The notes beneath the pieces are model-generated. The model saw only the letters and a list, made by a program, of their open reading frames with translations. It was not told where the DNA came from and made no database searches. A stretch of DNA of 56,444 nucleotides, counting the filler, from Dimargaris cristalligena (taxonomy: Eukaryota), in NCBI GenBank assembly GCA_003614675.1. It is 4 parts of 4 records of this genome, joined end to end, with 100 filler letters (N's around TTAATTAATTAA, not from the genome) between each part and the next. Parts side by side here need not be neighbours in the genome. Positions count along the whole stretch, not along the records: positions 1 to 14,092 come from ML002967.1; 3 more parts are not named here. The stretch is one strand, 5' to 3'. A program made the translations under genes and the position numbers. Of the stretch, positions 1 to 42,496 are shown piece by piece; position 1 is the stretch's first letter; every line of letters starts with the position of its first letter.

Positions 1-2608
1 AATATTCCAAACATAACCAGAAATATGTGAATGAAAGGGTTGGTGGGGTGAATTGTAAAACTATCTCGATTGGACTATATATGATCATCTATTGAGGAAT
101 AGATTATCACTATTTCGTCCAAATGGGACACCTATCAATATAAGTTTTAAATATGTGTGAAACTCGGCCCAGTTGTATAGGATTTTAAATGAAATTGCTG
201 TATCCGCAGTCACGGTAGGGCCTGGCCCTGGTCATCAAAATGGCACAACTCCATTAGAGTTCTCCGGTACAGCCGGGACTATGACCCCAGTTACTATGGC
301 CGAAGATCAGTGTGTTTTACAGCCACCCTTGACCCGGCCAGGGACTCCCTGTTAAACCTCCCTCCTTCCCTTCGCCAGTATTGCGATATATTAGTGCATG
401 TCATTCCCGAGGGTTTGATGAAATTACTGCTGGCCCTTCTAATGGCTTGGATGTTAGTTATTGGTTATATAAAAGTGCACTGCCAGCGCACCTTGATTCC
501 CCAGTTTACTAGCCTTCCCAACGCTGCCATTAAGATTCACACTATAAGTTACTCCTCATTAAATACGCCCATACCATTCACTAATACAACAATATATGGG
601 TCGGAAAATAGGCGGAATAGTCATGCTTAATCAGTAGTATTTGCCTCATCCAACGGATTTTTCATCATATAGTCTGGTTGAATCTTTCCCATATATATAT
701 CAAAAGTCCTTTTGATAAATGTTTTCACTATAGGGGGAAAAATACATTTACTTGTCGACTTCAGGTTTATGAGAGCACACGACACTCAATACGAAATTGG
801 GGCAACACTCATTGAATAAAAAGCGACAGAATGCTAGATAGCGCTAACAGGCTACGGTGTCGGAGTATCAAAATTAAAGTGAAAAATGCCTCGAAGATGG
901 CTAACTAAATCACACATGGTAACCCTCATTTAAAACGGCAGCAGTCGGGCTGCTCAGGCGGTCGTTCAACCAACAACCTAGGATAAATACTACAAAGTGG
1001 AAGAGGCTGTGGAATATGGGGGACTGATGGATTGGTGGCTTCGGTTATTCTATTACAAACTAATTAATAGTGACATGACTGAAGTCCCGGCCCTATTGAT
1101 ATACCGATTTGTGTTGATTAAGGAAGAATTTGTAGCCATCTATATTGAATAAACGGACGGATGCTCTAAATAGCTCAATCTACATGTGGCCCCAGTCGCT
1201 TGGATGTGACTAATTAAAGCAGGTGGAACATCAGTCAACCAAATAATGCCCAGAATTATAGAGTTTTCTAAATATGGGTATATAGTGAGGAAACGGATTA
1301 GCCCAAAAGTCCATCAAATAATTCGATGGGTTTATCGGTCGCCAATACAGCCTTATATATATACTGCGGAAATTTTCCCCTTTTTGAGAATAGAGGTGAG
1401 GAGTACTCAAAGGAGGTGCTTACACTCAACAATCAAAACGCCCCCCCCCCTCTTTGGATACATTATCATATTTGGAGTCTACATATTTTATTATTACTAT
1501 TGAAGCATTTTTAAGAATTGCCTTTGCAAATGTCTTGCTTTTCTCAAGCATAACTTCTCTTTATCAGTTAAATAAAGTTATTGATGATAGATGAATGGCC
1601 AAATTGGCGGGATATTCATGTCTAATCAGCCATCCTGTTGGTCTGACTGGTTAATTGTTTATATATATATTTACCATCTGGTGAATCCTCCATTTATATC
1701 TTAATCAAAATCCTAAGCAGCTTCGGTTGAAGTTTACGAAGCCGACGGTATAACCAATGATTCATTTCTAACTCATAAAAACACCAATACCCCAAAGTCA
1801 CTGGGGCTTTCTGGATTAAGCATGACTTCGATACTAATATGGAGAAATACATCGCATATAATATTCATTTGATAAGTAATTTCAAACATTCGTTGAGGGA
1901 CTGCATCGAAACATTGAAATAAAGGCAAAATAGGCTGTGCGAATAAGGCGGAGTTACAATTAATATGATTACAGCATAAAAGGTAAGGAGGTGGGGTAAG
2001 CAAACTGAGTAGTGTGTGTGTGTAAGTCAATTTGACAACAAAAAAAACAAAAGTTTGATATTCGCCAATATTTAGTAGGTAAAGGAACTGAAAGAATGAA
2101 TTAGTATGGAGTGTCTATAAATATACGACAAAGGACAAGAAATATACCCACGTGTCTATAAGATAGCATTTGGATTCAAGATCAAATATAAAGCGGTATA
2201 ATGAAAGTGAGCGCTGGGGAAAAATTACATTTCAAAGCCACACGTTAGAAGGAATACACCTTGGTAATATCTCAACTAGAAACATCATATCCATCAACTT
2301 AGGTACGACTGTAGACTGGGTAGTGGGTGAACGAGTGGGGCGACGAGGAAGTGGGCGATTTCGTGCTTTGGCAGGTAACCGGCGTACTTATTGGATTTAA
2401 TTCAGGCAAACCTCGGTTAAGGGGGAGAGCCATTGCCTGGTTCAATAAATGACCGCCTCCCTGGCTGAAAGGATGGGATGTTGGGGGAGGGTTGTTGCGC
2501 GCGTTACTATTACTATTTCCATTGACAATCATGTTCAACGGTGGTAACGGAGTCGGCAACGACTTGGGCATACTACTCGCGGGCAGCGATGGGCGAACCG
2601 CTACGGAA

Positions 2609-5251
2609 CTAGATGAGGGGGGGGGGCGAAGCACGCTGTATGGTCAAAGTGGCGGGCGGGAGATTCGATCGCTGTTCTCCACGCTGGTACTCCCGACTGT
2701 CGCCTGCATTATTTCCAACATTGACCCCATGTCGATTAGGGTACTCAAGGGAGTGCTGGGAATGATGGTGGTAGTCATCCGTACGGAAATTGAAATAGGA
2801 CGGCGAATGGGGCGGCGAATGAGTGTGGCCACCGCTTCCATGACTTCCGTATGATGGACGACGTGAGGCAGGATGCTCCTCCAAGGGGGCGTGATCGTAC
2901 GGCACGGTGTTGGGACTCCGTTCCGGATGAGCTGGGGAGGGCCTATTCGTAGCCGAAGCGGATGACGATGCCGAATGAGGTGGGGGGCGATGGCTGGGGC
3001 GGTAAGAGTGATGGGGCGCAGAATGACCACCACCGCTACCATTACAATCCTCAGCATTTCGGGAACCTAGCACACAGTCTAAATCCTGAATCAGGGATGT
3101 GGTCTTCGATAGCAAACCGCGAAGCCGCTCGGTCTCCTCATGAAGACACTGTCGGTGCTGCATCATCTCATCACGGTTAAAAGACTTGGGCTCGGGCGGG
3201 CCGTGGTAATAGGAATGATTATCTTCAGGGGCGCGAGTATACACAGGGTAATGATAGGGCTCGCTGGCAGCTGCCGGGGCGGATATGGACGGCAACGGCG
3301 CCTGGTGACCCCGATGGGATGATCGGTGATGATGATGGGACGGCTGATGAACGTGCGATGAAGAATGAGCATGCCGATAGGTCGAGTGGGAATGGGCTGA
3401 CTCCCGACCGCCATAGCCAGCCGTCTCATGTGGGGCAGGGGCAGACTGACGGTGAGGCGACTGTTCACCGGCGGTGGCAGGGTAATAGACGGGAGTGTGG
3501 GTTACCCGATAATCACCACCGTTGTTATCGGCCGACCGGACTTCACTGGCTGGATTGCGGGGGGACACGGCCGAATGAGGGGGCGAATACGCCGGGGGCG
3601 CTAAGTAAGGGGCCGACATCGCCGCAGTCGATGGGGCTGCCGTCACCGACCCAGTATGGCGACCATCGCCAGAACCGTTCAAGGAAGGCAAATTAAAATG
3701 GAGGGAAAAGTCCGAGCGGGGATGGGGTGGGGAACCGGCCGAAGCCGGAGTGGTATAGTGGACCGGCGGGGAGTGGGCCACCGAAGGGTGAGAAATGCCA
3801 GCAAGCGACATGGGTGGCACGGACACTCCGTCCGAACCCCGGGCGCGTTTGGGTGGGGAGGGCAGCATGTCGGGATGGAAGGGGTGATGGTCCTCCACCT
3901 GCACATTGACTGGGGCGCGTAGAATATGCTCCTCCCGGGGCCGCTTGCGGAGTGGGAAGTGGTCTTCGATGGCGGGGACTTCACCCATTACGGGGATGAT
4001 TTCACCCGGGGCTGGGCCGCTGGAGAGGGGGCCATCCCGACGGGCTGAGAGGCCATTATGCGAGGAATAGGGTAACTGGGGAGGGGAAAGATTAACACCG
4101 CTGGCTGAACCATTACCGCCATGTTGGTGGTGGTGATGGTGGGAATGATGGTGGCGACCGGGTCCTTGAGAGACAGTCGGCTTAAGGTCACCGGAAGGAG
4201 TTTGAGAACTCGATTGTTCGGGCGAGTGCGCGGCGGTTTGTTTCGGGGCCACCGCGGCACGCTTACGGCGTTTAATCACGGACCGCTTCATATGGACGGG
4301 CCGATGGACGCCGTGTAGCTTATAGTAAAGACCACAGGCATTACAGATGGTATTGCCGTCAGCATCCCGGCGCCATAGGGGCGTGTGGTCGGTCTCGCAG
4401 TTGAAGCACTTGCTAGGTAGGCGGTGCATATGGGTTTGATTGAAGGCAGGGCAACCCCCGCATGCAGCGGACCCACCGGTACCATTACAGTGACCGTCAC
4501 CGGGGCAGTCTCCATCGGCGTGTTGGGCGTCTTTAACCTCTTCGGGCCCATGGGCTCCGGTTACAGTGGCATGACCAGCCGAGGCCGGTAGATGGGCGTT
4601 GCTGGCGTTGACAGCAGCTGCACTGCCGTTCGCATTGGAGTCCCAGGCGGGCTCCTGGGTGGCTATGTTGGCACCAGCACTGCTGTTCCGCTTCTTACTG
4701 TTGTTGCCCTTGAGCCAAAACGGACGGACTTTACCGTAGGAACGGTAGTATAGGCCACAGGCATTACAAATGGGCTGGCCCTGTTCGTCCCGACGCCAGA
4801 GCGGAGTAGTATTAGTATGGCAATTGGAGCATTCCAGGGCAGAAACGGTGGAGAAAACGTCTTTGCGTGCGGCCAGGCCCGTCTTGGGCTTAGCTGAAGC
4901 GTGGGCGGGGGATTTCCCGACGGGTTTGGCGGGCGGGGTCGAGGTCGCCACTACTAAGCTGGGCTCCGGAGAAACGGTCAGGGAAGGGGAGACTTGGCCG
5001 TAATGAGGTAGCGCAGACAGAACCAGGGCAGCCTCGTTGGTGGCGGGTGATTCGGAACGTGGACTAAGGCTAGGACTGGGCTCATGGCTGGTCTGGGGGC
5101 TGTTCAGCGGATGGGGCGGTGAACGGGAATCGTGGGGGTCGATGAGGGGGCGTTTAGATGGAGCAGAAGGGACGACGTATGGGTGGGCATAACGGGGATC
5201 AGATTCCAAGCCTGAATTACTGCTACGACGGACTGAGTTCGGAACGGACAT
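2609..5251 (-). CDS. sreA: Iron-responsive GATA transcription factor (SreA/Urbs1/Fep1 type)
   Basis: Two GATA fingers ([28 protein letters not shown] and [33 protein letters not shown]) flank the family's Cys-rich motif ([23 protein letters not shown]). A late helical, coiled-coil-like segment is present ([32 protein letters not shown]). Intronless 880-aa ORF; the true stop may be at 2299 (see frameshift finding). Confidence 0.93.
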
Positions 5252-6215
5252 GTAAAGGGGATTAGTTAAGCACTACTAGTTAAAGGGATGAAAATCAAGG
5301 GATTTAGGTGGGGGGAGCTTGGGGATAAATTCAAGCCAGGGATAAACCAATATTAAAAATCAAATAAACGGCCAAATAATAATGTAATGGTGATAGACTA
5401 TAGGAGAAAAATATCCAGGCAAACCAAAATTAATATATGCGTCGGATAACTCAGGGACTGATGAAGGTGCAAGGGGACTTGACAGGTGAGCACAGTACAC
5501 GACTTAGAGGACCACTGAATGAAGTGCGTGGAAATAGAGATGTTTAGGGAAAAAAGAAGGGATGTTTGGGGTTTTAGAACCGAGAAAAATCAATAAGCTA
5601 ATGATGAGGCAATGGTTATTAATATGTGATAGAGAGGGAACTACTAGGTAGGTAGGTAGGTTATCAATGAGGTAAGAAAGGACCCTTAACTATGTACAAT
5701 AGATGATGATGGTAAAAGGCAACGAACAGTAGTAGTAGTAGTAGTGATCAGATAGAGAGGAAGGGTGGGGGGAGGAGGTGTTCCGTAGCAGTATATTCAG
5801 ACTGTTGTGTCAGTAGTAGTTACAACCCAAATAGTACAAAGGATATACGTCGAAATGGGGAGGAGGGTCCCTTAGTCGCGCTAAACGGTGGACTAATATG
5901 ATGATGGATCCACGAGGAATATCACAGGGAAAGAGAGAGGCGGTGGTGCACCGGGCGCAGAACCTCGTCGAGCTTTAAGCGAATGAGATAGAGGAATAGA
6001 CAGTAGAGGGATACTGAATATAGAGGGGGATTGGGTCGATAAGGGTTGATGATAATAGTGGAGAAATAATAAGACGACCGAATCAGAGATTGGATAAGGG
6101 CAGTATAGATGTAGAGAGTCCCGGGATTGGGAGGGATAAAATGACGCGAAAAATGGGAGCGGTAAAAAATGGAGGGATTAAAATCGGATCGCGTGCGCTC
6201 GATATAAACCGGGGA

Positions 6216-6326
6216 TTATAATCCGGTGAACGCTTTTGCCAGAGCGGTGATCCGACTATATGACGAAGTAGTGAAGGGGTGTTGGGTGACAGAAAAAACG
6301 GGGGCGCCTGCTAACGACGAAATCAT
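6216..6326 (-). promoter_or_regulatory. Candidate upstream ORF (36 aa) in the putative sreA 5' leader
   Basis: The only minus-strand ATG between 5252 and 7231; reads MISSLAGAPVFSVTQHPFTTSSYSRITALAKAFTGL*. Confidence 0.45.
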
Positions 6327-7154
6327 GAGGCGGAGAGTCACGGATATCGGTATAGGAGATTCAACGAACGGGGGTAAAAGGGGGGAAAGGGGTAGGGAAT
6401 AACAAATAAGAAAGGAAGAGGGAGGGAGGAAGGGTCTTTGGTACGATTGAAGACTCCAGCTAATATGGGCAAATATATTCGCGTAGAACGGAGAGGGTTT
6501 CCACGGCGAGTTAGTTAATAGGGTAAGCGGCGGGAAGGCACGTTGAGTCGGTGTGGACAAGGTTCAGTCCGGTGATGGGTCGAAAAGCGACTGGAGGGGT
6601 GGGATGGGTTAGAGGGGGTGGAAATCAGGGCAACAGTCAGTCAAAGGTAAGCACAGGAATAGGTATTAGGTAAAAGAGGGAGGGAGGGAAAGAGAGAAAA
6701 AAAGAACAAAGGAAAGTTCAAGGGTGAAACGAGTTCAGGACAACTGGTCAGTCAGGTGAAGCAGGCAGGGGGAGAAAGACAGCTAAAATAGGACAATAAT
6801 AATATTCACAGGCGGAATGAACAAGCAAGCTTAAACAGGGTCAGTATATAGAGAGAGGTTCGCAATACAGACTAGTTACCACCTAAACTTGTGTGGTTGA
6901 GGGGGAAAGAATGCTGAAGAGAAAAGGCGGAGAATGGTTCAGGACAGAGACTAGAGAGAGAAAGAGACGGTAAGTTCAAAGGCAATAGAAGGAACTATTA
7001 AGCAAAAGGGAGGGTTAACAAGAAGGGTTGAGAATCCCAGAAATAATGAAGAAGGACTTTAAAAGGTAGGACCGAATGCGGTAAGGATAAACTGAGGCAA
7101 GCAAAATGTGTGGGGGGAGAGGAAATAGCCCTGAGGACCGGGGCACCGAAGTAG

Positions 7155-7161
7155 TTTTATA
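7155..7161 (-). promoter_or_regulatory. Candidate TATA box for sreA
   Basis: TATAAAA on the minus strand at the upstream edge of the pyrimidine-rich, ATG-depleted block. Confidence 0.35.
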
Positions 7162-8709
7162 CAATGATGACGGGTGGTTGGTTGGTGGGAATGGGGCAAA
7201 GGAGAGAGAATAAAGATGGGACGGATGGTCCCATCAGTGCTTTTCGCTCACACACCCACAAAGGGGGTTAGATTGATGGTGGATAACAAAATGCCGAAAC
7301 TGACCAGGAAAAAGAGGGAGGGGGAGAGAGGTGTTCCACGCAAGTCAGAAGTTCCGAAACACCACAATGATAAGGAAGGCGATGGGAAGGGGGGGAACAG
7401 GCACTATTTGACACTTACCTAAACGGGAACTATAGAAACGATACTACTAGATGGCCGGAATAGAAAATAGAGGGAAGGAATATGGGGTTGTTAGGCACAC
7501 GATAACAAAACGGGGAGGGGGAGATGCTGGAAGATAAGCAATTTGCACTTATTTGGGTAGATGGCAATTTAAGGTAACCAGGGCTACATTTAGAGAGAAT
7601 GGAGGGAGGGAGGGCTGATTACAAGAGCAGCCGCTGTAGAAGAAGAATCCATCATCCACCCTCACACACCCGCCGTGTGCATACACTGTGACAGGCACAG
7701 CTAGTGAAGGTAGGGTAAGGTGGGGTGGTGAGGATGGTGGCGGGTTGAGTAAATGCGCCGCTTGGGCCTCGGCTTTGCTTATTACAATGCTTCCGTATAG
7801 AGAGAGCCCCCCGTCTTTGTACATGTATTATTTATATGCACATCCCACGTATCAAAAAAAGAACTACCGGCCACGGAATAATGAGGGTTAGGGGGAGGGA
7901 GCAAACCCCTCTCTCTCACCACAGGTGACCGCCGCATTGTAATAAAAAGGGGAGACGGAAGAGGGAGACAGAAGACTCTCTCGGGTGGCAACATGGAGAG
8001 ATAACCCCACAAAATGGATTGTGCAACCACCCAAAACTAATGATAGAGAGGAGGAAACGGGGGGAGACAAGAGAGAGTGAAAGATACGCCAATTATAGCC
8101 ACCAGGGCTGAACAAGATAACGATAGCGATAATGCTTTAAATAAAAACTTACCCACTGGGGTGCTGAGGGTGTATCACACGAGGGCTTGGGCCAGGCGAT
8201 GGTAGTACACGAATACTACCAAGACAAAAGAGCTGGTTCGGCGACTAGTCTAATAATCCGATGGTGATAATAAGAAAATATACGGCGAGGGGGAGCTAGG
8301 CCGGAAGGCCGATAGCGGCTGCATTGGGTTTTAATTGAGCCCTCTAAATATAATAAAATAGTTTAGGGCCTGTGTGCTCTGTACAAGCGCTAGTTGGGTA
8401 TTATAGGGCCAGTCAATAATATTCAATCCAAACGGGTTCACGGATACGAACGACGGAGGCGCAGGAAGGGTGAACGAGACGAAGTTTACACGACCCCTAG
8501 ATTACCAATGGGGGGGATAAAAGGAACTAATAATATTAGAAAAAGAAGGGGGCAGTAGAAAGAATATGGTCCGCCGAAGCTGCAGGAAAGGAAAGGGAAG
8601 GAAAGGACAGAGGAGGAGTGAATGCGGTGTTTATAGAGCGCAGATATTCCCACCGTTCGGATGTCACGGGGTTTAGCGTGGACTAGCCATGGAGGGCCAG
8701 GAGCGCCGC

Positions 8710-8731
8710 ATATATATATATATATATATAT
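8710..8731. repeat. (AT)11 microsatellite
   Basis: Seen directly in the sequence. Confidence 0.9.
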
Positions 8732-11700
8732 TTATAAGAATGGGAGGGGAGAGAAGAAAAGAGAAGAGGCTGGCTGCCAAGGTCGGCAGCGGGCATATAG
8801 TGTGGTGGCTATAATAGTAGCATATAATCTACGGGACGGGGAATTCTAGGGAGGGGGAGAGATAAAGGGGGGGGTGCCTCACTCAACAAGCTCCCACGAC
8901 ATCCCCCCCCCTTCACCATATAAGATTACGAACAAAGCATATACGGAGAAGGATTGGCCATCACCGAATTTCTTAGATTGCGATAATAAGCCAGTAGAGT
9001 ACTCCATACTACGTTCCTACACTGCGCTGGCTAACCAACAGCGCATATACACTCGGGACTATCAGAAAAGGGAAATTGTTATCATCAAATGAAAGGAGAG
9101 GAAGAGAGATCTAGTGGATGGCTATGATAGGTGGAAAAAAAGGCGCAGCTGACTGTAAAAATAGGGCCATGATAGTAAAAGTGGGGCACATCGTCTTCCC
9201 GTGGTATGGCGGCGGTGATGGATGGTGGTCATTCCCCCCTTTTCCTAGCCAGACTGCAGCCTCTCCCTCCCCTTCTCTTCCTTCCCTTCGTTCTTTGTCA
9301 TTCACTGCTCCTAACCCTCTAACCACTATACTGCCGGCATTATCTAAATTAGTTAAATGGGCGACCCCCGTTGGTGCCGCCCACCTCTCTCTCTGCCTCT
9401 TCCACACGCCTGCTGTCATTCATTTTGTACATCCCTCTCGGCCGTCGAATCGACGTAGATGACCCGCGGCTGACTCGGAACCCTCGGTGCCGAACTCAAG
9501 AAATACGCGGTAGGATTGGCCTCATTGTATTTAGCTCTCTCCCACCCACACATTACACTTTCCTTGGTGCGCGTATCCTCCTCCTCTTCCATCCACACCT
9601 ATCTCCCTCCACTCCGCCCATCACCATTGGCCTGGGGGGACGGAAGGTCCCGCCACTCCCATTTATCTTCCCCCTCCCAACCACTCGGATGCCCGTGTCA
9701 GAGTTACGCAATCTCACCAACCAGTTGAAAACGGCCTTCGTTGGCCTCAATCAGTGCCGGACAGGACTAATAAGGCGAATGATGAGATAAGAAACCCCCG
9801 TTCATTGGCCGTCAAGATAAGTGGATTGGGAAGGGACCGAATAAAAGACTGTGTGATAGATTATGGCACTGATTGGAGAGAATAATCGCTATTTTTATAT
9901 ATGCGCATATACACTTCCTACATTATATATAATCAATACACCTCGGGGCATCACTAGTCCTAATGAATGTGAATGTGAAACTGACCCCTGTTGACAAGGC
10001 CCCACCATCACCAATCGAGTGTACTGTTGTCAGTGGAGTATGCTTTTAACAAGGATCCACCACTTACCTCCGTAGATGTCCGAAAGACCGCCAGCCAGTC
10101 CGCGTATACCATTGAAGACCCCATTTATGCCCACTGTTGGGCTATATCTGCACCCGCGTATACCGAGACTGGGGCGATGGGCCAATAGATGGCTTCCATC
10201 GATCCTGATAAGATAAAACCCGACATCATGCGCCTAATGCAGTAGTAGTATTGGCTCTGCCCATCTCTTTTTACCCCTACATTGCTGATAGCATCTAGCC
10301 CAAGCCAAAGGTGTATCACCACAGCACCCCCTTATGTACAAATGCCCTCTTTTCCCGCACTGCTCTATGCCACTGCATCAAAGGGCAGTGCGGTAACCAG
10401 TCAGAGTGCTTACATGGAGAGAATGCGTTAAAGGGCGTCTTTTCCTTTTTACTCCCTCCTCAACATGCCCAACCAAAAAACACCAACGGTTAGCGATTAT
10501 CACCATTGATTCAACTAAAGAAAGTATCGGCTTTAAGCTATGTAAGTTAAAGCGATTGGACCAGGGCCATCATCACCTCAATAGATTCTTCAGATACTCC
10601 CCCCCCCTTATTATCCCTTTCCCGAAGCTCCGCATATTCGAAGGTTAATTGCAGCGGGCGATCTTAAACCATCCCAATGTATACAAAAGGTCCAATCGAC
10701 CAGCGTTTCCTTCTCTTACAGTTTGACGCCAGTCGCTTCCGCGCCGCCAGCCACGACACATGGGTTGCACAGTAGTACCCCTCCTCTATGTTCTCCGTTG
10801 AACCGACTATTATTAAACCGGTCCGTTTTCCTATTAAACCAGCTATTATTATACCACTGCAGCACCCTGGCGATTCCCTCCTATAGGGCATGCACTGCAG
10901 CCATCACCCGGTGGTTGGCCTTGGAGGAAAAGAGCCTCCCCAAGGGCAAGATAAACTACTCCGATTAAGACTTGCCTCCATATAAACCAGATTTAGATGT
11001 AGAGTGAGTGAGGGGAAATTAGATCAGTTCAGCGTGAGAACCCAACTAGAGGGGAAGAAGGGGCAGGCATGAAGTAATGCATAGTTTCATCGATAACCAC
11101 TGGATAATATAGTGCATTTTTTAAGAACTTATCCCCCCCCCTTTCATTTGAGTGAATGCACACCTTCATTAGTTTCCAAACCACTTGGTTTGATGTTATC
11201 GAAGTGTTCTGATACTGAAGTCCGCACACCCGTCAGATTGGGCCACCGACTCATTACCATAGGCGGAGGCTTTGGGCACACATGGACGGAAGAAGGTAGG
11301 CATATAGGGCTCGATGACCGTCCACTTTGCCGAGGTCGGTGTGGTTTCGAACCGCCGGCACTATGTCATGGACCACTGTATGGCCCGATTAGTCGGCAGG
11401 GGTGGACGATTTCGGATGGTCATTATACTCTAATGACCACCTCACCCAGTGGGTTATCACTTTGTTAATCTGAATATATATGACAATGGGCTGTACTATA
11501 ATACCTTTCAGATATCAACGGGGCTTATCAAAAATGGGTGAAGGGAGAGGGGGGGCAGTCCATAATATAGAGGCACATGTCCGAATAAGCCCACCATCCC
11601 AGTTCTTCATGCATTCGACTGCTTGATGTTTATCGATGGCAGATGGAAACCCAGCACTAACTGAGGTGGGGGAGCAGAGCTTGTGGCCGAATAGTGTAGC

Positions 11701-11912
11701 AGTGGCTGGTTAGCCTGCCCCCCATTCATTCCTTTCACCACAAATGAATGACATACTGGGCATTCAATAGCCGGATAGTTCTTATACTCATCTAGAATTC
11801 CCCGTAAGTTATCTCACCGGACTCACCTGATGGAATAGAGGCGCGGGTACTCTAAACCCAATTAGTTCAACCAGTATCTTACAGGTAGGAAAGCAGCAGA
11901 GGGATGAGGTAT

Positions 11913-11936
11913 AGAGAGAGAGAGAGAGAGAGAGAG
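11913..11936. repeat. (AG)12 microsatellite
   Basis: Seen directly in the sequence. Confidence 0.9.
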
Positions 11937-13788
11937 GGAAGAGAGGGGGGGGAGAACATCCGCTATTCAGTCGTTTTCGGTTGATGATTCCGAGACTTTA
12001 ATCCGTTTTAGACATCTCCCTGAGCACTGTCCCCATTAGGAAAAGAGGGGGGGGCTTTTTTGTGCATGTACCCTCCGATGGCGCCGATAAGCCCGATTAG
12101 TCAGGACGGGGTGGGGATACCCATCTAAAAGAGGGTAGGGCCCGTGTCACCTATTCGAGATATCCGGTGGACCATCAGGGATTGATAATAGTGTTCGCGG
12201 CTAAAGTTGACCCAATTGGGCATTCGCCCCGTATCTAAATGGGGCACGGGATATTGGTTATCTACCGGCCGCAGAAGTAAAGGGATACGGAAGAAGTGAC
12301 CTGCGTATTCCTTCTAGCAAGAACGGCAGTGCGAGAGAAAAGCGAGTGAATTGCCGGGGTCGTACAAAAGGAGTGTGAAAGTCACGACCCTTTCCCTCAC
12401 GTTATGGGAAGGGCAGGGTCAGCTGCCAGCCAACGGGCCGTAGCGGACATACGGGACGGCGTAGATGCTGGTAGGTAAAATCGGGGCCGGGATGCGTCAA
12501 TGCGGCCCTGCCGTTTCGCGCGGGCACTCTTTTTCTCCTAGTCATTTTGTCGCTCGCCCGGTCCTTATTCCGGCCAGGTGCCCCGCCCGGGCGGGTGCGT
12601 GCACTGCCTATTCTAAAAAGGCATTGGCAGGCCAGTAAGAGCCATGGGGACTACACATACCCAGCAACACAGTCACACCTACTCTCCACCCCCTTTGGCC
12701 GCAAGTTTAGTAGGTCCATGGGATATACTACCGTTAGTTCGAAGGACACGTCAACCTCCTTACCCGCTTTTATATATATAAACCTAAATTGCGGGAAGAC
12801 ATCTCATTGCCATTCATTTTTCTAGACGAACTGCGTGGCACTGCTGACAATGCTGGCTTAGATGGCCTGACCCGTTGGTATGCACAAGGACCGGTTAGCT
12901 CGTCCGGTGGGTCGGCTGTCCCAGTGGCCTGGATTAGGGCATACGTAGGATTTTCTTTGGCCCACACTGAATAATGCGCCTCCGTTCACTCCCGGCCTGG
13001 CCCACCTTGTTCATTAATCTAAACCTGGTAGTGGCTTGGCCCCATCCCCCCTTATTCACCATACGAATAACCACTTTAATAATTCCCTCCCATCCTGGCA
13101 CCACGTCTTCCCGCATTTCAAACATACCCGGCGGACAAGTCAACCACGAATCTACCGGATTATGTGTTTCCTTTGCCCCCTTCCCACTCTACTTCGATTG
13201 AAAAAAAGCAAAGAGAGAGAGAGAGAGCGACAGACTTAATATATAGGTTCCTCCCTTCCTCGCTCATCACAATCTCCAGGTCGGGAGGGACCACATTGGT
13301 TAGGTAGGAGTTGCTCTATCAGTGGGGAAAGTACTGGAGGAGGCAAGTCCCGCTCAGTTGGCCCAGGCACTATCTCGTACATCAAACCCTTCAAATTCCT
13401 TTCGTTTCTCGAATTGGTTATTGAGGGAGATCAGCCCATTTAGATATATCCGGGAGACTGTCCGTGATCCACTTTTCCCTACCTCTACATAAGCTGCCCA
13501 TTTTCGCATCACCAACCCCGCTTTGTACCATCGTACCAAGCTATCCGCACGCTGGTGAAATGGTCAATTATCCTATGAATTATTCCAAACCAATCAAAAC
13601 TGCAGAACACCTTCGCAAATATTAACGACAGCTGCCAATATAGGCGGAGTGAGGTACACGGGTGAAGAACGGGCAATAAAAATAGCTGGGCAGTCCTCCT
13701 TCACCTATGGGTGGGCATACAGCATCACCTGTACCCTTTTTGCGTAGTATCCGGCCGAGGCCTGAATCCGGGAGTAGTTCAACAAGGC

Positions 13789-14092
13789 TGTATAACGAAA
13801 AATCCATTTGATGAGGCAAGTAAAGTACTACTGGCTGAAAATAAACATCCCACCAATTCTCCCATATACATATTGGTTAAAACCTTATACAACTAAGTGG
13901 AACTTCACCCATATCGTTTCGGGTTTATATTATATTCGATAGAATCTGGGATATGGGAGAAGTTTATCCAAGTTGTATAACGAAAAATCCATTAGATTCG
14001 GCCAATATTACTAGTTAAAAATACATTTCCCATCTATTTTCCCATACACGTATAATGTAAACCCTTATATAGCTGGGCCGAATTTCACCCAT
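13789..14092. repeat. Diverged tandem duplication, period ~180-185 bp
   Basis: TGTATAACGAAAAATCCATT at 13789 and 13974; TTCACCCAT ending at 13912 and 14092; runs into the gap. Confidence 0.8.
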
Positions 14093-14192
14093 NNNNNNNN
14101 NNNNNNNNNNNNNNNNNNNNNNNNNNNNNNNNNNNNTTAATTAATTAANNNNNNNNNNNNNNNNNNNNNNNNNNNNNNNNNNNNNNNNNNNN
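14093..14192. other. Artificial contig spacer
   Basis: 44 N + TTAATTAATTAA (stops in all six frames) + 44 N. Confidence 0.97.
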
Positions 14193-28250: not shown

Positions 28251-28350
28251 NNNNNNNNNNNNNNNNNNNNNNNNNNNNNNNNNNNNNNNNNNNNTTAATT
28301 AATTAANNNNNNNNNNNNNNNNNNNNNNNNNNNNNNNNNNNNNNNNNNNN
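28251..28350. other. Artificial contig spacer
   Basis: 44 N + TTAATTAATTAA + 44 N. Confidence 0.97.
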
Positions 28351-42396: not shown

Positions 42397-42496
42397 NNNN
42401 NNNNNNNNNNNNNNNNNNNNNNNNNNNNNNNNNNNNNNNNTTAATTAATTAANNNNNNNNNNNNNNNNNNNNNNNNNNNNNNNNNNNNNNNNNNNN
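42397..42496. other. Artificial contig spacer
   Basis: 44 N + TTAATTAATTAA + 44 N. Confidence 0.97.

Follow-up and report, generated by a model that had tools for sequence, protein, structure and literature searches.

A strand-specific ATG desert upstream of an SreA-type GATA factor gene of Dimargaris cristalligena points to a probable long, scanned 5′ leader with a single upstream open reading frame

Why does the sense strand of almost 2 kb of DNA directly upstream of a fungal start codon contain a single ATG? The question is raised by a stretch of 56,444 nucleotides from Dimargaris cristalligena, a mycoparasitic fungus of Kickxellomycotina, Dimargaritales (GenBank assembly GCA_003614675.1; hereafter, the window). 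In this window, a gene encoding a GATA factor of the SreA/Fep1/Urbs1 type starts at position 5251 on the minus strand and is preceded by a block of 1982 nt (5252..7233, minus) that is depleted of ATG, poor in G and rich in pyrimidines. Here, we analyze this block, its gene and the leaders of homologous genes, and we suggest that the block is probably for the most part a 5′ leader that is transcribed and scanned by ribosomes. The window consists of four joined pieces with paired 44-nt runs of N, regularly spaced, at the joints (14093-14192, 28251-28350 and 42397-42496), and only the first piece (1-14092) bears on the finding.

Between 5252 and 7231, the sense strand holds exactly one ATG, at 6326, and the next one upstream lies at 7234. 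This reproduces the count given in the original prediction, and the rough expectation of 15 to 20 ATGs stated there agrees with shuffled controls: dinucleotide-preserving shuffles of the block predict 17.9 ATGs (standard deviation 3.5; z = −4.8) and mononucleotide shuffles 16.4, and in both cases 0 of 5000 shuffles contained one ATG or fewer. Thus, the depletion is highly significant against dinucleotide shuffles, and the possibility that it would dissolve under this control, which the original prediction had raised against itself, is ruled out. The Poisson probability of one ATG or fewer, given 17.9, is ∼3e-7, a value that would remain significant after correction over every 2-kb window of a genome of ∼30 Mb. 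The depletion in the block is real and far beyond chance. It also concerns one triplet on one strand. Among the 64 triplets, ATG is the most strongly depleted in the block (z = −4.8), while near-cognates show no depletion (CTG, 36 observed vs 28.1 expected); after AT, a G follows in 1 of 141 cases, while the T-led dinucleotides as a whole are TG in 89 of 705 cases (∼12.6%); and the antisense strand of the block carries 43 ATGs. The ATG-free gaps from 6326 to 5251 (1075 nt) and from 7234 to 6326 (908 nt) are the two longest in the window on either strand, in a ranking of ∼1800 gaps that covers 872 plus-strand and 941 minus-strand ATGs; the third-longest gap in the 56-kb window is 564 nt and the median ∼40 nt. 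For the other eight window open reading frames (ORFs) of at least 200 codons, the nearest upstream ATG lies at a distance of 35-307 nt. Along the block, 500-nt windows contain 0/5.7, 0/4.2, 1/3.0 and 1/4.4 ATGs (observed/expected), the last count being the boundary ATG at 7234. Elsewhere on the contig, the ratio is ∼1 on both strands, and depletion is likewise absent from the 3′ flank (6/6.5 and 12/9.5). Two further triplets deviate on the minus strand of the block: AGA is scarce, with 1 vs 9.2 expected (0 of 5000 shuffles), and AGT is over-represented (24 vs 15.4 expected).

The composition and the signals of the block can be described in similar terms. Its sense strand was described as pyrimidine-rich and is measured at 68.9% pyrimidine, with 12.1% G. 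The mean minimum free energy per 150 nt is −16.7 kcal/mol for the sense strand of the block, −25.0 for the antisense strand and −39.1 for the coding sequence; in the distant flanks it is −35 to −39, and in regions elsewhere overall −29 to −39 kcal/mol. A low G content and weak folding are what the selection behind a purge of AUG would also favor. The canonical fungal 5′ splice hexamer GTRWGT, which has 106 matches in the window, has none on the sense strand between 2023 and 7249, and because ATG is depleted in every quarter of the block, it is unlikely that the block is mostly intron. At the upstream edge, 73 nt inside the boundary, lies the previously noted TATAAAA (7155..7161, minus), a candidate core promoter element and the only sense TATAAA between 5252 and 7835; a transcription start site (TSS) may be placed ∼30-100 nt downstream of it. 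The first ATG above the desert opens a 25-codon ORF (7157..7234, minus), which ends in the TAA of the TATA box and marks the upstream boundary. A scan of the whole first contig against Rfam at E ≤ 1 gave only a sub-threshold mir-14 match at 13208-13270 and none in the block. In a scan for regulatory motifs, ATCWGATAA was absent, and HGATAR and CCAAT were not enriched around the gene. Repeats in the block are microsatellite-scale arrays and direct-repeat families of 28 nt in three copies and 22 nt in two copies. The idea that the block was built from copies of an ATG-less unit was ruled out, as there are no large repeats.

The gene downstream of the block is an uninterrupted ORF of 880 codons (2609..5251, minus), whose product has two zinc fingers together with a Cys-rich region. 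Across 98% of its length, this protein is 100% identical to P0001, a Dimargaris cristalligena protein according to NCBI. Two GATA fingers of the form C-X2-C-X17-C-X2-C occupy residues 127-151 and 268-292 of P0001, i.e., C141...C165 and C282...C306 in the numbering of the window ORF, where the alignment columns are invariant; both fingers are present in 60 of 60 inspected homologues. Between the fingers, C249, C255, C264 and C267 form the motif C-X5-C-X8-C-X2-C, which is invariant in a 42-sequence alignment (the window protein and 41 of the 120 listed homologues) and is the architecture given for Fep1 in the available part of PMC4992955. A homology search with the window protein gave 1803 matches at E ≤ 0.001 among 8000 scored candidates; homologues named as such in their sources include Suppressor of ferric uptake 1 (P0039), URBS1 (P0053), a siderophore transcription factor (P0094) and GATA factor SREP (P0096), in a listing in which many automatic protein names are wrong or generic. 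By its fingers, its Cys motif and its homology to these named members, the window gene is an SreA/Fep1-type iron GATA factor at the level of sequence, in agreement with the identity first proposed for it.

The start codon at 5251 is supported by the alignment of Met1 with Met11 of the Tieghemiomyces homologue P0002 (MSV.N...R.S.N.GLESD) and by an in-frame TAA 15 nt upstream. The next ATG after the main AUG, at 5190 (minus), lies 61 nt further downstream and is out of frame, so that leaky scanning beyond the main AUG would be unproductive. The database model of P0001 is 5′-partial and starts at residue 15, skips the stop of the ORF via a predicted short intron into a downstream ORF (2609-2620 and 2299-2571, minus) and has three residue differences from the window protein, which suggests a second assembly or strain. 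Outside the conserved core, the C-terminal half of the protein contains His-rich runs (∼4120-4150 and ∼3320-3350, minus), and a C-terminal segment aligns with a conserved coiled-coil-like block of the family. Apart from this gene, neither strand of the first piece has an ORF that reaches 200 codons, and the ∼8.8 kb upstream of the gene appear to be non-coding or limited to genes with short exons.

The sole ATG of the block opens, as originally stated, an upstream ORF (uORF) of 36 codons plus TAA (6216..6326, minus; peptide P0121), which starts 1075 nt and ends 964 nt before the main AUG. The local fold around this uORF is non-significant (z = −0.96). A search of 1.84 billion protein representatives with P0121 returned two matches only (E = 1.4e-6 and 3.1e-5), in proteins of 1325 and 1918 amino acids that align across several short stretches, and we judge them uninformative.

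Is the scarcity of ATG peculiar to this contig, or do other SreA-type genes share it? Metagenome contigs were scanned with the family alignment, which matched 418 stretches; 378 of these proved to be relatives, and the analysis used the best 80, none of which has a Kickxellomycotina protein as its nearest. Eighteen of these 80 loci are cDNA-like, i.e., they have complete uninterrupted ORFs of ∼500-700 codons with flanks the size of untranslated regions (UTRs) on contigs of 1.9-3.1 kb. Their 5′ leaders contain 17 ATGs vs 56.2 expected in 8048 nt, and their same-strand 3′ UTRs 103 vs 93.9 expected in 5732 nt. The limitation of the depletion to the 5′ side, with a normal 3′ UTR control, indicates that the scarcity is a trait of SreA-type mRNAs and no peculiarity of a single contig. 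All 16 shuffle-tested homologue leaders are G-poor (8-20%), and AUG-poor homologue leaders span from 400 to at least 1567 nt. Three leaders are depleted individually: L044 (nearest to a Trichoderma protein; 1567 nt upstream; 2 ATGs vs 16.1 expected; 0 of 1000 shuffles reach the observed count), L078 (nearest to a protein of a lichen-forming ascomycete; 551 nt; 0 vs 6.8; 0 of 1000) and L019 (nearest to a Mortierellaceae protein; 741 nt; 1 vs 6.6; 2 of 1000). L044 is the closest parallel to the Dimargaris desert; its two ATGs (L044:1-1567) overlap, at −131 and −127, and its contig is either cDNA or genomic. Most single Glomeromycotina-like leaders are only borderline cases, in which 9 to 666 of 1000 shuffles come down to the observed count, and the leaders of L004 and L011 show no ATG depletion. 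The control triplet CAT is not significantly depleted in any tested leader (at least 143 of 1000 shuffles at or under the observed count). In intron-bearing genomic loci, the mechanical assignment of the first in-frame ATG is unreliable (none in 11 of the 80 loci and negative offsets in others), and only the rank of ATG-free gaps was used for these loci. Among the 13 genomic loci of at least 12 kb, the largest 5′-end gap holds rank 1 in five, rank 2 or 3 in another five and rank 11 or below in the remaining three, with the 5′-end region making up ∼10% of the searched space and L035 and L040 being near-duplicates.

In one group of these homologues, a uORF is itself conserved. Leaders of genes whose products are nearest to Glomeromycotina or Endogone proteins (e.g., L003, 82% to a Dentiscutata protein, and L004, 84% over 158 residues to an Endogone protein) contain a uORF of 30-43 codons that ends 193-366 nt before the main AUG (L002-L008, L011-L014, L017 and L018; for example, L011:291-383). 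A profile of 11 of the uORF peptides (core TTDRTLALYHIESPT), compared by hmmsearch --max with six-frame pieces of the entire window and of the 80 loci, matches 13 of these loci with E values from 3e-23 to 4.5e-10. One of the 13 uORFs is cut by a contig end, and in 8 of the 12 leaders in which it is complete, it contains the sole upstream AUG (uAUG). In the leader alignment, the uORF is the best-conserved island, with a column conservation of 0.75-0.80 vs 0.2-0.55 elsewhere. Within the 15-residue core, 5, 2 and 15 of the 15 sites vary at codon positions 1, 2 and 3, respectively; the variation in the core is exclusively synonymous, with switches that include Arg AGA/CGT, Ser AGC/TCA and Leu CTC/TTA. 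This bias of variation toward third positions is a signature of selection on the peptide. The profile has no match on the sense strand of the Dimargaris leader; its sole match in the window (E = 8.2) lies elsewhere, on the plus strand. Judged from sequence, we treat the Dimargaris uORF and the conserved homologue uORF as analogous, not homologous.

Above the desert, the sense strand remains pyrimidine-rich up to ∼9100 (7235..9100, minus), with a near-normal to mildly low ATG density and ten sense ATGs. The strand skew changes sign at ∼9100-9200, which may mark a divergent promoter. This zone has sense TATAAA motifs at 7836, 8635 and 8736, and GTAAGT on the minus strand at 8152-8147 and 7418-7413. 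Each GTAAGT begins an intron-like segment on that strand, one of 45 nt (8152-8108; GTAAGT...ttgttcag) and one of 118 nt (7418-7301; GTAAGT...ctgac...ctttttcctggtcag); if these two introns are real, transcription would start further upstream and the ATG at 7234 would lie inside the leader. A second region that is sparse in ATG and poor in G, though less markedly so, lies at 8001-8700 (minus) and has ATG-free gaps of 366 and 330 nt. Possible roles of the zone are those of a promoter, an upstream exon or an alternative TSS region.

A strand- and triplet-specific purge that runs from the TATA box to the start codon is most simply explained by transcription and scanning of the block. We consider it reasonably probable that 5252-7233 is a largely continuous leader of ∼1.8-1.9 kb with one 36-codon uORF. 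We suggest that transcription begins a few tens of nt downstream of TATAAAA (7161-7155), that the ∼1.8-1.9-kb leader is retained in the mature mRNA and that small ribosomal subunits have to scan its entire length before they arrive at the AUG at 5251. Purifying selection would have purged upstream AUGs, leaving 1 of ∼18 expected, and, lest scanning be aborted, would also have kept the leader RNA low in G and weak in structure. The uAUG at 6326, in its weak context, would capture a share of the scanning ribosomes, and the 964-nt AUG-free spacer after the uORF would permit leaky scanning and re-initiation. As a net outcome, synthesis of the repressor would be damped, possibly in a manner that depends on conditions.

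Several observations weigh against this account or against parts of it. The context of the uORF AUG (CGCCTCATGA) is weak, with a pyrimidine (C) at −3, and its peptide has no detectable similarity to the metagenome uORF profile; the uAUG may be a tolerated leftover that has not been retained by selection. The AUG of the conserved homologue uORF has a pyrimidine at −3 as well. A weak context followed by a long spacer without AUG is compatible with a leaky regulator of mild inhibitory effect as well as with a remnant that is tolerated. The main AUG also has a weak context, with T at −3. The quarter that contains the uORF (6251-6750), with 1 ATG vs 3.0 expected, is individually non-significant, and an intron of a few hundred nt could sit there. 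Further upstream, 8001-8500 (minus) contains 1 ATG vs 5.8 expected, and pyrimidine richness up to ∼9100 combined with sparse ATGs could mean that the TSS lies further upstream or that the composition is not purely a leader trait. Among the homologues, the cDNA origin of the 18 contigs is judged solely from their uninterrupted ORFs. Finally, leaders of 1.9 kb are, to our knowledge, rare in fungi. Altogether, the long scanned leader proposed in the original prediction gains from the specificity of the purge and its presence in every quarter, the weak fold, the lack of 5′ splice hexamers and the TATA box, while the retention of its uORF, which that prediction proposed, may be mere tolerance. The further proposal of translational control fares similarly: AUG-poor leaders in homologues and a single conserved uORF in one clade make such control plausible for the SreA family, but the uORF of Dimargaris has no detectable relation to the conserved one.

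Three other explanations have to be weighed against a single scanned leader. One keeps the block exonic but not as one fixed leader: dispersed or alternative, possibly condition-dependent, starts and/or a modest 5′ UTR intron would produce nested leaders, all AUG-free and typically far shorter than 1.9 kb. Selection on ATG requires only that each part of the block belong to some translated isoform, and TATA-like motifs are dispersed along the block; the weak depletion at 6251-6750 and, above 7234, the extra sense TATAAA motifs, the intron-like GTAAGT...YAG pairs and the persisting strand skew are also what nested leaders would predict. Yet the sole sense TATAAA of the desert sits at its far end, the sense strand of the desert lacks a canonical 5′ splice hexamer, and the distal quarter is depleted about as strongly as the proximal one, so that the distal starts would have to matter for fitness. 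We regard nested leaders, alternative starts or partial splicing as rather unlikely. To place the TSS near 5251 instead would turn the block into an untranscribed promoter or spacer, in which the paucity of ATG, like the pyrimidine-rich, G-poor composition, would have a cause other than translation; mutation biased between the strands, CT tracts that exclude nucleosomes and the layout of binding sites are examples. Fungal promoters often contain CT-rich tracts, the skew reaches past the desert to ∼9100, and the depletion of AGA has no translational explanation. Such causes are difficult to reconcile with the 17.9 ATGs that shuffles still predict when dinucleotides are preserved, with the undepleted state of other TG-bearing triplets, among them CTG, and with the near-absence of G after AT in a block where G follows T in ∼12.6% of cases overall. 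Moreover, the ten ATGs of the pyrimidine-rich zone 7234-9100 imply that composition alone does not purge ATG, and homologue leaders are depleted specifically on the 5′ side while same-strand 3′ UTRs are normal. We give an untranscribed block only a small chance.

It is very improbable that the start codon is misplaced, with an upstream coding exon spliced on and the block mostly intron, or that the desert reflects chance or an assembly artefact. The 5′-partial P0001 model begins after ttcag, a possible acceptor, which would suit a misplaced start; but selection against ATG does not act on introns, conservation with Tieghemiomyces begins at the Met and covers the first 14 residues, a stop lies in frame just upstream, and the sole upstream candidates, at 6326 and 7234, open ORFs of 36 and 25 codons that are closed by stops. 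Chance is opposed by the shuffles, none of which came down to the observed count. The source may be a fragmented assembly, and the window is composed of four contigs joined by N runs, but an artefact of assembly would not deplete a single triplet on a single strand.

Should the scanned leader be genuine, it would rank with the longest known to us from fungi and be a clean natural case in which purging of AUG and of structure keeps a 2-kb leader scannable. Beyond this one gene, a wider reading can be put forward, which we offer as speculation and consider doubtful as a whole: SreA-type repressors would be under a third layer of control, ancient and widely distributed, through a long, AUG-purged, G-poor leader with one regulatory uORF, beside HapX-dependent transcription and iron-sulfur sensing; the uORF of the Glomeromycotina/Endogone clade would encode an arrest-type peptide that might sense iron or a related metabolite at the ribosome; and Dimargaris would have the same design at ∼1.9 kb, with a lineage-specific uORF. 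The conserved uORF of the soil-fungal homologues makes the idea of translational control testable. If true, iron regulators would be tuned at the ribosome, which would be relevant to fungi with SreA of the Glomeromycotina type, i.e., arbuscular mycorrhizal fungi, and, by extension, to pathogens whose virulence depends on the SreA iron circuit.

The original prediction knew of no description of such an arrangement for this family, and our literature searches found none either. They returned no uORF or long leader for the SreA family, in a literature sample outside which lie most subscription-journal papers, among them the first descriptions of the urbs1, sreP, sreA and sre genes, so that an old remark from a Northern blot or primer extension may have escaped notice; nor did they return a description of the conserved uORF of SreA homologues. 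In the parts of the sources that were available, passages on uORFs and on SreA are unrelated in PMC6417087, PMC2848559 has solely a deletion within the “5′ untranslated region” upstream of SREB, and PMC4232046 brings up UTRs only as the mammalian iron-responsive element/iron regulatory protein (IRE/IRP) system and in a cloning step. As far as the accessible parts of PMC4208449, PMC3272694 and PMC4992955 go, SreA-type regulation consists of repression of transcription by HapX in iron starvation and of binding of an iron-sulfur cluster by the Cys-rich region. These layers are transcriptional and post-translational, whereas the control proposed here is translational. Iron homeostasis in fungi is described in terms of transcription, i.e., the HapX-SreA loop, and iron-sulfur sensing; a translational layer for SreA-type repressors did not turn up in our searches.

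Three known kinds of leader invite comparison. The arginine attenuator peptide is encoded by a uORF of Neurospora arg-2 and yeast CPA1, is conserved as a peptide and causes ligand-dependent ribosome arrest. Like these genes, the Dimargaris gene would have a single short uORF with an AUG in weak context in the leader of a regulated fungal gene, and the homologue uORF of the Glomeromycotina/Endogone group is likewise conserved as a peptide with synonymous third positions. However, the peptides have no sequence relation, ligand and stalling are known for arg-2/CPA1 while here the argument is built on sequence, and in Dimargaris, ∼1 kb separates the uORF from the main AUG within a proposed ∼1.9-kb leader. 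Re-initiation control of the GCN4/cpcA type requires at least two uORFs with differing re-initiation properties. The Dimargaris arrangement shares with it a long leader, a short uORF, an AUG-free spacer that would permit re-initiation and an mRNA for a transcription factor, but one uATG in 1982 nt sets it apart from a multi-uORF system. The Candida albicans genes UME6 and WOR1 have 5′ UTRs of ∼2-3 kb that were reported to reduce translation; they resemble the Dimargaris gene in having a leader on the kilobase scale on a fungal master regulator gene, and differ in that their leaders were mapped experimentally and are not known to be purged of AUG, whereas that proposed for Dimargaris is deduced solely from such purging. 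Altogether, with arg-2/CPA1, GCN4/cpcA and the long Candida UTRs as reference, the arrangement proposed upstream of the Dimargaris GATA factor gene would be of a known kind and lie at the extreme of length.

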